This document shows positions 25,642 to 26,747 of a stretch of 26,747 nucleotides of DNA, in pieces. Location: the IMG/VR virus record IMGVR_UViG_2778261499_000013, positions 1 through 26,747 of that record, one strand, 5' to 3'. This DNA comes from a virus (taxonomy: Duplodnaviria > Heunggongvirae > Uroviricota > Caudoviricetes). A program made the translations under genes and the position numbers. The notes beneath the pieces are model-generated. The model was not told the origin of the DNA. It saw only the letters and a list, made by a program, of their open reading frames with translations, and ran no database searches. Within the stretch, counting starts at the first letter, position 1. Each line of letters opens with the position of its first letter.

Positions 25642-25810
25642 CGTCTTCTTCCTCGTACATTGAGCTATTCGGATCGCTCATCAGCTCTGCGCAGCAGTGC
25701 TCACACACGTGAACTTCCAGCACATGCAGCTTCTGACCGCAGTTAGCGCACGTTAAAGCCCGCTCGACGCTTTCTTTCTGGTATTGGAGGGATTGGGATG
25801 GGCTAAGCAT
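25634..25810 (-). CDS. ninF: NinF-like small Cys-rich protein
   Basis: 58 aa from the ATG at 25810: MLSPSQSLQYQKESVERALTCANCGQKLHVLEVHVCEHCCAELMSDPNSS matches lambda NinF as I recall it; the ORF-track start is a TTG two codons upstream; start overlaps the methyltransferase stop. Confidence 0.8.
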   Translation of the reverse strand: MLSPSQSLQYQKESVERALTCANCGQKLHVLEVHVCEHCCAELMSDPNSSMYEEEDDE

Positions 25811-26747
25811 TAACAACCTCCATACAAACTTTCACGAATGCCGTTGCTACTTCTGCATTGATTGCGTTTCCATATCCAATAATTCGCTGATCTTGATTGC
25901 GCTTTGCCATTCCTCCCAGTGTGGACTTGCCTCGTCCCAAGCTTTTGGCAATGCCATTAACCATCGGGAATGAGCCGGGTCTAACTGGACGATATTTTTC
26001 ATCTCTACAGTAAAGCCAGTCTGCATCTCTCCAGAAGCCGTTAACCGGTAATGAGTACATAGCTTCACCGTCCCTGGAAGTTTCAAGCAGATTCTTGGGG
26101 TTCCGCTCTTGTCTTTTCCGCTGTAGCAATGCGTTGAACCTGTTGCATCGTTCGCTAAAGGAGTTTGCCATCCCGCTAGTCTCACGCATCCAGATAGGTT
26201 CTGAATTCCCCTGCGCGTTTCTGGCTGAAAGTTGATATTTGTCGTTGGAGTAGGCCACCCAATACAATCGCTGCCTGATGTGCGGAGAACCGAAGCCCGC
26301 AGCGCAAATATCGGTACCTGCAGAGGTGTAGTTCGCACCTTCCAAGTCAGTTTGTACAAGGTCGAGCCAAGCGAGGCCGTCTGCGCTTGCAACCTGTTCG
26401 CCAATAACGATGCCAGGATTGCATTTTTCAATAAGCCAGAAGAATGCCGGCCATAAGTGCCGCTCGTCATCAACCCCTTTTCCTTTGCCTGCCGAGCTGA
26501 AAGGTTGGCATGGGCAACTTCCTGTCCAGATACTCTTGTTGTCTGGCCATCCTGCTTTTCTAAGTGCATAGCTCCAAACTCCGATTCCTGCAAAAAAGTG
26601 GTGCTGGGTAAACCCTCGCAAATCACCTGGTGTGACATCTTCAATACTCCTTTCATCTACATAACCGGGGGCAATTTCTCCAGCGTCAATTAAGTTACGC
26701 AGCCATTGCGCTGCATACGGATCTATTTCGTTGTAATACGCAGTCAT
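25803..26747 (-). CDS. DNA (cytosine-5)-methyltransferase, phage nin-region type
   Basis: 314-aa frame with C5-methyltransferase hallmarks in order: FFAGIGVWS, GSCPCQPFS (catalytic Pro-Cys), GEQV (ENV-like), PHIRQRLYWVAY (QxRxR), GYGNAINAEVATAF (GNAV-like). The ATG is the last three bases of the window, so the true start could lie beyond it. Confidence 0.7.
   Translation of the reverse strand: MTAYYNEIDPYAAQWLRNLIDAGEIAPGYVDERSIEDVTPGDLRGFTQHHFFAGIGVWSYALRKAGWPDNKSIWTGSCPCQPFSSAGKGKGVDDERHLWPAFFWLIEKCNPGIVIGEQVASADGLAWLDLVQTDLEGANYTSAGTDICAAGFGSPHIRQRLYWVAYSNDKYQLSARNAQGNSEPIWMRETSGMANSFSERCNRFNALLQRKRQERNPKNLLETSRDGEAMYSLPVNGFWRDADWLYCRDEKYRPVRPGSFPMVNGIAKSLGRGKSTLGGMAKRNQDQRIIGYGNAINAEVATAFVKVCMEVVNA

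Follow-up and report, generated by a model that had tools for sequence, protein, structure and literature searches.

A prophage C5 cytosine methyltransferase gene holds a second, selected protein-coding frame and probably encodes a two-subunit enzyme

Introduction

We analysed 26,747 nucleotides of viral DNA (positions 1 to 26,747 of the IMG/VR virus record IMGVR_UViG_2778261499_000013, Caudoviricetes; this whole stretch is called the window), of which the final 945 bp, read on the minus strand, carry a gene for a C5 cytosine methyltransferase. The 314-codon frame of this gene (frame 1) encodes a chain that we call alpha. It is overlapped on the same strand by a second long open frame, shifted by +1, and we call the product of this nested frame beta. 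Long same-strand overlapping genes are rare in bacteria and phages and are often disputed. We found that both frames are under purifying selection, that along the gene selection shifts to the second frame and then returns to the first, and that the two-frame layout is conserved in related loci across Proteobacteria. We propose, at a probability of about 0.7, that the gene encodes a two-subunit C5 methyltransferase in which beta is the recognition subunit.

Results

A methyltransferase gene with a second open frame

The Pfam gathering threshold for PF00145 is 22 bits, and the alpha chain scores 53 over residues 73-217; its match to phrog_363 spans the whole chain (E 5e-91). Against TIGR00675 it scores 42.6, under the cut-off of 100.65, with its residue 6 aligned to profile position 27. 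The open reading frame (ORF) for beta lies wholly inside that for alpha and covers 84% of it (Table 1). The 945 nt of the gene recur in 11 complete Escherichia coli chromosomes at 99.2-100% identity and, identical or at least 99.2% identical, in 23 viral contigs.

A first-pass annotation of the window had taken the 314-aa frame for the real protein and had noticed that the second frame is also open. The Pfam and PHROG matches, together with colinear homologues and the start at 26747, bear out the former judgement, and the second frame is indeed open for 269 codons from an ATG. The overlap had also raised the possibilities of a frameshift, an assembly error or an overprinted gene. A frameshift or assembly error is excluded, since about 226 of 240 independent related loci share the layout and 11 complete E. 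coli genomes carry it unchanged. An overprinted gene was worth looking for, and the evidence given below supports one.

Table 1. Positions of the features of the alpha/beta gene in the window. CDS, coding sequence; dN and dS, nonsynonymous and synonymous substitution rates (pooled over 12 independent pairs); pLDDT, predicted local distance difference test score; PCQ and similar strings are amino acid motifs.
Feature	Position	Strand	Remarks
Alpha CDS (frame 1), C5 cytosine methyltransferase large-domain chain	25803..26747 (including stop)	minus	314 aa, ATG start; from the ORF and PF00145
Second open frame	25847..26656	minus	+1 relative to alpha; ATG start; 269 aa
Nested beta CDS	25847..26638	minus	+1 frame; 263 aa and stop, MSHQVICEG...METQSMQK; frame open from 26656
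Internal Shine-Dalgarno sequence AAGGAG	26647..26652	minus	8 nt upstream of the beta ATG (26638..26636); formed by alpha codons GAA-AGG-AGT (E-R-S)
Alpha codons 1-79	26511..26747	minus	dN/dS 0.07 in frame 1 and 2.65 in the +1 frame; frame-1 dS 0.59
Alpha codons 80-165, dual-coding segment I	26253..26510	minus	dN/dS 0.20 in frame 1 and 0.89 in the +1 frame; frame-1 dS 0.19
Alpha codons 166-234, variable region	26046..26252	minus	dN/dS 1.36 in frame 1 and 0.21 in the +1 frame; dS 0.20 in frame 1 and 0.67 in the +1 frame
Alpha codons 235-270, dual-coding segment II	25938..26045	minus	dN/dS 0.62 in frame 1 and 0.54 in the +1 frame; dS about 0.14-0.15 in both frames
Alpha codons 286 to end (314)			dN/dS 0.24 in frame 1 and 1.07 in the +1 frame; frame-1 dS 0.55
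FFAGIG, motif I-like glycine loop of alpha	26580..26597	minus	Residues 51-56; strand 46-51 and helix 55-65 in the model
PCQ, motif IV of alpha, catalytic Cys80	26505..26513	minus	Aligned to PCQ of M.HhaI; invariant in alignment A2
Alpha C-terminus, GYGNAI (motif X-like) and terminal helix	25806..25892	minus	Frame-1-only constraint returns; helix 298-313, pLDDT up to 86
First GWPTP module of beta	26246..26260	minus	W128, P129, T130 and P131 nearly invariant in alignment A1; overlaps YWVAY, the tail of alpha motif VIII
Second GWxTP module of beta (GWQTP)	26159..26173	minus	From the translation
LDPAHSRWLMALPKAW of beta, motif IX-like	25937..25984	minus	Resemblance by eye only

The two-frame layout is conserved across Proteobacteria

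We compared the beta frame with PHROGs and found that it matches two families, phrog_1008 (E 3e-23) and phrog_31772 (E 2e-18), both labelled 'DNA methyltransferase', a first sign that the frame is not noise. The first-pass annotation had stated that its suspicion would be refuted if homologues existed for the 314-aa frame alone. They do not: the 269-aa translation retrieved 2,784 proteins, which typically share 50% identity with it across 94% of its length, measure about 295 aa and have no Pfam domain, and the second frame is the selected one in the middle of the gene. When the beta profile was run against 1.84 billion representative sequences, the matches numbered 14,276 clusters (at 50% identity) with E <= 1e-3, of which 6,808 had E <= 1e-30, and almost all began at profile position 1. 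On the alpha side the dual-coded family numbers at least 8,000 clusters (at 90% identity), and on the beta side about 14,000 (at 50%).

The layout was surveyed in 80 genome loci that encode relatives of the 314-aa protein (39-88% identity, GC content 0.49-0.69, Enterobacterales to Rhizobiales) and in two viral samples of 80 contigs each, which were picked on the N-terminal catalytic domain alone. The methyltransferase frame is intact in 75 of the 80 genome loci, where the +1 frame is open for 210-505 codons (85-95% of the gene) and the +2 frame of the same genes holds 9-30 stops. Essentially every classifiable locus in the first viral sample and 73 of the 80 in the second have two frames, which brings the total to about 226 of the 240 loci sampled.

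As a control, each gene was subjected to 500 synonymous-codon shuffles that preserve its protein and its codon usage. Shuffled versions of the window gene have a longest +1 open run of 103 codons on average and 219 at most, compared to the 269 observed. For 14 of the 19 genes tested, none of the 500 shuffles reached the observed run, and for the others at most 15 did. The second open frame therefore goes far beyond chance.

The nested frame is present in public records, mostly without a name of its own. The exact beta-frame sequence is the GenBank hypothetical protein EYZ97033.1, and a beta-like frame occurs in 242 phage records, mostly beneath a single methylase CDS. Some annotators have independently called both nested CDSs, in a few records such as those of phages K1ind2 (locus L084, 1086-2015), with a 'C-specific methylase' and an inner 'putative Mte8-like protein' at a +1 offset of 88 nt, and PhiXhv-28 (locus L085, 1044-2036), with two 'DNA methyltransferase' CDSs at a +1 offset of 82 nt. 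The label 'Mte8-like' could not be traced to any functional study. A literature search on the nested ORF of the alpha family found only papers on M.EcoHK31I and this unexplained label, and none in which the nested gene is described or accounted for.

Selection switches between the two frames

We calculated pooled Nei-Gojobori (NG86) dN/dS over 12 independent pairs, and purifying selection was found on both frames, switching from one to the other along the gene (Table 1). Constraint lies on frame 1 at both ends of alpha and on the +1 frame in the variable region, while dS is three- to four-fold lower in codons 80-165 and 235-270, the two dual-coding segments. Segment I superimposes alpha motifs IV-VIII on beta residues of about 44-129 (ANLSARQAKE..., GSTLYKLTWK..., ALRASVLRTS), and segment II superimposes alpha VNGFWRDADWLYCRDEKYRPV... 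on beta RLTASGEM...QLDPAHSRWLMALPKAW, with invariant residues in both alignments A1 and A2.

A single comparison already displays the switch. Between the window gene and a relative from Pluralibacter (locus L004) there are 92 differences in 945 positions and no indels. Thirty of the 36 differences in nt 1-237 are synonymous and 6 are nonsynonymous in the methyltransferase frame, versus 4 and 32 in the +1 frame; of the 25 differences in nt 496-702, 3 are synonymous and 22 nonsynonymous in the methyltransferase frame, versus 21 and 4 in the +1 frame. Divergence is only about 5% in nt 238-495 and 703-897, with the rate halved in segment I. The pattern is repeated in the 12 independent pairs, and 270 of 502 substitutions in the variable region fall at beta third codon positions.

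We also surveyed the four-fold sites of the methyltransferase frame in 74 deeply diverged genes. These sites are saturated (H of 1.5-2.0 bits) in codons 1-79 and 285-314 and almost invariant in codons 80-165 and 234-265. Fixed codons include Pro82 CCT (65 of 71 genes), Pro111 CCT (71 of 74), Val119 GTT (69 of 70) and Ala141 GCC (58 of 58) in segment I, and Val255 GTT (66 of 66), Pro257 CCC (66 of 67) and L262 xxG (66 of 66) in segment II. Because the same sequences have saturated stretches, which serve as an internal control, shared ancestry is not the cause of the frozen sites. Fixed T at alpha third positions yields invariant beta leucines at i, i+4 and i+8, a pattern at the level of the protein.

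Each frame is kept open where its amino acid sequence is free to vary. The alpha frame has no stops in the middle region across 74 loci, compared to about 148 expected, and the null would leave about 17% of genes with an intact alpha frame instead of the 75 of 80 observed. The beta leader has 9 stops when 27 are expected, and all 9 directly follow the first ATG, upstream of the second. In some relatives (e.g. protein P0383) the beta frame contains an inserted HNH domain (PF01844, E 5e-5), and alpha remains open across the insertion and still reaches GYGNAV (locus L071). The insertion, of about 170 codons, follows the WLMGLP segment of beta (L071, 1501-3117; P0383 and P0284). Mirroring this case, a zinc-ribbon-like insertion (CPSCGG...CLDCG) occurs in the alpha frame right after motif IV in loci L071 and L062 (residues ~90-120), and there beta reads through.

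Conserved start signals for beta

The alpha codons for D-E-R-S-I-E-D-V (GAT GAA AGG AGT ATT GAA GAT GTC) also spell a Shine-Dalgarno sequence, AAGGAG, followed by an 8-nt spacer and an ATG in the +1 frame. Across loci, AGGAG or CGGAG and the downstream GATGT are conserved; Asp37 is encoded by GAT in 66 of 70 loci, hosts of 65% GC content included. A +1-frame ATG lies upstream of the constrained part of beta in all 74 loci surveyed, 60 of which have a Shine-Dalgarno core 5-16 nt upstream of it. In some loci the first ATG stands directly before a TAA, and its role passes to another ATG, which lies 12 nt downstream and is preceded by GAGGA.

Features of the nested product

Beta has a pI of 9.05. 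It begins with a freely evolving leader rich in Ser, Thr and Pro (the first ~43 residues) and continues with a conserved block (ANLSARQAKE-GL-TSGTYG, a predicted amphipathic helix, and GSTLYKLTWK...ALRAS-RRTS), GWxTP modules and a C-terminal part. There are two GWxTP modules in the window's beta and one to six in relatives. The C-terminal part reads RLTASGEM-TG...QL(N/D)PAHSRWLMxLPxAWD and contains nine invariant positions; those in LDPAHSRWLMALPKAW, as seen in alignment A1, are L219, P221, A222, H223, W226, L227, L230, P231 and W234. The +1 frame shows a coding signature across LDPAHSRWLMALPKAW, which by eye resembles motif IX of C5 methyltransferases, L-x-P-R-E-x-A-R-L-x-G-F-P-D (LTPRExARLQGFPD).

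A short subfamily (loci L111, L125, L132, L133, L136, L137, L143 and L040) has an alpha of about 262 aa that is without the GFWRDADW block and is fully dual-coded. Its C-terminal beta motif is LTLARYLMTLPVEW.

Features of the catalytic chain

Alpha PCQPFS (IV), GEQV (VI) and IRQRLYWV (VIII) align to the corresponding motifs of M.HhaI and are invariant in alignment A2, and the alpha profile aligns to M.HhaI residues 74-173 (motifs IV-VIII). GYGNAI is likewise invariant in A2, and the Pfam and PDB profile alignments of alpha stop short of this motif X-like segment. The AlphaFold2 model of alpha has pLDDT values of 70-89 over residues 1-169 and below 50 over residues 170-294, and is confident again over residues 295-314. 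A Foldseek search with this model matched about 170 columns in M.HhaI, M.HaeIII, DNMT1 and DNMT2, all within the large domain. A conserved target recognition domain (TRD) and motif IX were not found between motifs VIII and X of alpha, where codons 166-234 have a dN/dS of 1.36, a pLDDT below 50 and a poor alignment in A2. Because the alignment, the AlphaFold2 confidence and the Foldseek match are all confined to the large domain, alpha is, as far as it is modelled, a catalytic large domain without a conserved or modelled small domain.

The distance between FFAGIG and PCQ is unusually short, as the first-pass annotation had remarked. F51 to Q81 spans only 31 codons, with FFAGIG about 23 residues before PCQ throughout the family, and motif I and PCQ of M.HhaI are about 40 residues farther apart. 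The motif I region of M.HhaI aligns weakly with FFAGIG (-2.4 bits), and the canonical order, with motif I N-terminal and then II, III and IV, was not found in alpha. The AlphaFold model has strand-helix-strand elements ahead of FFAGIG, and this, together with the position at which the TIGR00675 alignment starts, suggests that the motif II/III-like elements YYNEID... and VDERSIEDV lie N-terminal to motif I. The N-terminal motif order of alpha thus looks permuted, which would account for the short spacing.

An orphan gene in a lambdoid nin region

Elsewhere, the window consists of a P22-like prophage, and phage phiv205-1 covers about 66% of it at 95.7% identity. In an E. coli prophage with an identical gene (locus L001), the neighbours are those of a nin region, in the order NinB, an N6-adenine methyltransferase, NinE, the alpha gene, NinF, a DUF1364 protein, RusA, NinH and Q. 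An endonuclease or type II restriction partner is absent among these nin-region neighbours, and the alpha gene is consequently an orphan methyltransferase gene in a lambdoid nin region. The N6-adenine methyltransferase is Dam-like (L001, 3298-3825) and lies two genes upstream of alpha, just outside the window; the nin region of this phage therefore contains two orphan methyltransferases.

The alpha gene is complete within the window, starting at 26747 with no run-off past the edge. The first-pass annotation had thought that it might extend farther. In all 11 E. coli prophages, the NCBI Prokaryotic Genome Annotation Pipeline (PGAP) calls the identical 945-nt CDS from the same ATG, under the name 'DNA cytosine methyltransferase', and the NinE stop lies 2 nt 5' of that ATG (L001). 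GAGGA is found 8 nt 5' of the ATG. An alternative ATG 6 nt farther upstream would give a 316-aa form, and its spacing from GAGGA is poor. At the other end, the NinF ATG used by PGAP corresponds to window position 25810, so that NinF overlaps the last 8 nt of alpha (..GTT AAT GCT TAG); the mechanical ORF list begins NinF at a TTG, at 25816. Because NinF overlaps the end of alpha and NinE stops 2 nt before its start, the nin genes look tightly packed and translationally coupled.

Discussion

A proposed two-subunit enzyme

Dual coding itself, with two selected frames, both open, and conserved start signals, is very secure. We propose that one mRNA of the 945-bp gene gives rise to two polypeptides. 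Alpha would bind S-adenosylmethionine and carry out catalysis through FFAGIG, PCQ (IV), GEQV (VI), RQR (VIII) and GYGNAI (X); at the canonical place of the TRD it would have a 70-residue linker of unconserved sequence that is kept open. Beta would be initiated at the internal AAGGAG-N8-ATG (26638) in the +1 frame, would supply through its GWxTP modules the only selected reading of the variable region, and would end in RLTASGEM...QLDPAHSRWLMALPKAWD, its motif IX-like part. It would dock on alpha, in the manner of the M.EcoHK31I heterodimer, and serve there as the target-recognising small domain; the outcome would be a phage-encoded orphan methyltransferase with its expression from the nin region.

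The production of beta as a chain of its own, its binding to alpha and its control of DNA specificity are inferred, and its presumed role as carrier of the TRD and motif IX is drawn from its position, the selection pattern, the by-eye motif resemblance and analogy. On balance we also lean towards a wider claim: that the C5 methyltransferases of phages and prophages across Proteobacteria include a very large family that is obligately dual-coded, with the whole target recognition region residing in a nested +1 subunit, and that the number of GWxTP modules (1-6) sets or multiplies specificity.

Several results weigh against beta as the recognition subunit. An hhalign comparison of beta with M.HhaI was insignificant (probability 0.5%) and left the proposed motif IX segment unaligned. 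The beta profile had no matches among PDB sequences at E up to 10, and beta had none in Pfam or NCBIfam. Five composites, in which the beta middle was placed between the alpha ends, gave a PF00145 match neither higher nor longer than that of alpha, and one alpha-beta composite brought no gain over alpha against PHROGs. The AlphaFold2 model of beta, built from a 36-sequence alignment, is poor (mean pLDDT 39) and unusable for a fold search.

A further such result is that natural alleles fuse the N-terminal part of alpha in frame to the C-terminal part of beta. A composite query retrieved many PF00145 proteins of this kind, for example P0434 (RefSeq, MULTISPECIES Pseudomonas; locus L086, 1501-2520) and P0415 of P. 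aeruginosa (locus L087). At these loci there is a small indel beside GWPTP, and the other two frames still hold, intact, the N-terminal block of beta and the C-terminal one of alpha (motif X). P0434, the allele traced in detail, owes its fusion to a 1-nt deletion just after GWPTP relative to the 99%-identical, normal loci L169 and L171, from which it also differs by a 96-nt deletion, and no fusions were present among about 150 classifiable loci in the two viral samples picked on the N-terminal domain. We rejected the idea that the fused alleles are the ancestral single-frame form for these two reasons; judged from their sequences, they are sporadic derivatives. At the P. aeruginosa locus L087, a separate gene with a weak HNH match follows the fused ORF.

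Alternative explanations

The alternative to which we give the most room, though we consider it unlikely, is that beta is a real nested gene with a job unrelated to methyl transfer, such as a regulator, an anti-defence factor or a DNA-binding accessory, and that alpha works alone or with degenerate specificity. It would fit the lack of detectable similarity of beta to characterised domains (in Pfam, PDB, NCBIfam and hhalign against M.HhaI), a model that is largely disordered, as is typical of overprinted proteins, and the HNH nuclease insertion in some lineages. However, it would leave alpha without a conserved variable region, with its high dN/dS and low model confidence there, when between motifs VIII and X only the beta reading is selected; and the sole studied enzyme with such a gene layout needs both chains (PMC2836561). 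Far less probable is a single polypeptide made by two programmed frameshifts, the first (+1) past motif VIII and the second (-1) ahead of motif X, even though frame-1 IV-VIII, the +1 variable region with its motif IX-like end and the frame-1 GYGNAI would together mimic the canonical C5 order (I-VIII, TRD, IX, X) and the alpha middle is not under selection for its amino acids. Beta is constrained about 85 codons upstream of any shift site (alpha codons 80-165) and has its own conserved Shine-Dalgarno sequence and ATG, while the alpha middle is kept open (0 stops versus 148 expected) and has its own constraint at codons 236-255, within the supposedly shifted stretch. Moreover, the composites leave the PF00145 match unimproved, there is no conserved shift motif after motif VIII, and a -1 slippery heptamer occurs near the return point in only 2 of 70 loci. 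This unconserved slippery site and the selection pattern led us to reject the double-frameshift model.

It is also very improbable, slightly more so than the double shift, that the +1 frame is untranslated and owes its openness and conservation to alpha's amino acid constraint, to codon bias or to a signal in the RNA or DNA. The poor structure prediction for beta agrees with this account, but the substitutions in the middle gather at beta third positions (270 of 502), being synonymous in beta and nonsynonymous in alpha, and the invariant beta leucines at i, i+4 and i+8 are held by fixed T at alpha third positions. In addition, some relatives carry the HNH domain in the beta frame, shuffles that preserve codon usage fail to reproduce the open frame, and there are no Rfam matches. 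The chance that the two frames stem from a frameshift, a faulty assembly or a pseudogene in decay in the window is close to nil. The family does contain sporadic frameshifted alleles (L086, with its 1-nt deletion, L070 and L079) and one with an in-frame TGA (L003), but the window gene is shared, identical or nearly so, by the 11 complete E. coli genomes and 23 viral contigs, both of its frames are intact, and its layout is the family norm.

Some individual alleles merit description. In the Enterobacter locus L003 (2892-3947) the TGA lies inside motif I of alpha (FFA*IG), the +1 ORF is intact over 301 codons and the gene record takes in both frames; alpha is probably a nonsense pseudogene there. 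In E. coli STEC1588 (locus L002, 1501-2493) a 2-nt deletion near the 3' end, past the beta stop, gives a 330-aa alpha with altered last residues, and a 330-codon form of alpha also occurs in a viral contig (L088).

Implications

The alpha/beta gene provides unusually clean comparative evidence of selection passing between frames and back along one gene. If dual coding is obligate, few same-strand nested gene pairs known from bacteria and their viruses would be as long and as widely conserved, and PGAP-type annotation, which gives the alpha CDS only in the E. coli records examined, would omit half of the enzyme. If beta is the recognition subunit, thousands of 'DNA cytosine methyltransferase' entries would each be half an enzyme and thousands of 'hypothetical proteins' the other half. 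Predicting the specificity of phage methyltransferases would then need the +1 frame, which matters for restriction evasion and for the epigenetic marking of phage DNA. The gene is also a natural system for the re-partitioning of a two-domain enzyme by frameshift.

Comparison with known systems

With viral overprinted genes the alpha/beta gene shares a long nested +1 ORF, alternating constraint, a poorly predicted product and an internal start. Its overlap, at 792 nt, is of unusual length and is conserved unusually widely (the 14,276 beta clusters), and its nested product probably complements the enzyme of the enclosing gene instead of having an unrelated function. Compared to canonical monomeric C5 enzymes (M.HhaI, M.HaeIII and Dcm; PF00145/TIGR00675), alpha has motifs IV, VI and VIII, the large-domain fold and a score above the Pfam gathering threshold; it differs in having no conserved TRD or motif IX, in the closeness of motif I to PCQ and in its TIGR00675 score below the cut-off.

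The proposed arrangement is modelled on M.EcoHK31I, an enzyme of E. coli HK31 with the target YGGCCR. In M.EcoHK31I, beta sits within alpha in an alternative frame; alpha has motifs I-VIII plus X, beta has motif IX, the two chains must associate for activity, and the N-terminal part of beta mediates their association (PMC2836561, PMC3404938). More generally, two polypeptides, divided within or close to the variable region, can assemble into a C5 methyltransferase, as in M.AquI and in the artificial fragment complementation of M.HhaI, M.SssI, M.BspRI and M.BsuRI (PMC3404938). The M.AquI subunits are consecutive (I-VIII, then IX-X), whereas here alpha has both ends and the nested beta the middle.

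The likeness to M.EcoHK31I, seen in gene layout and motifs, extends to a beta wholly inside alpha in a different frame, to motifs I-VIII and X (here I-like and X-like) in alpha, to motif IX (here a segment that resembles it by eye) in beta, and here to a conserved N-proximal beta segment. The differences are that beta has 263 aa here and 176 in M.EcoHK31I; that the variable region is selected in beta here, whereas the TRD was assigned to alpha in M.EcoHK31I; that the window enzyme is a phage nin-region orphan without a restriction partner; and that the motif order of its alpha looks permuted, with II/III-like elements before motif I. If our proposal is correct, M.EcoHK31I, a single curiosity of 1995, would become one instance of a widespread design.

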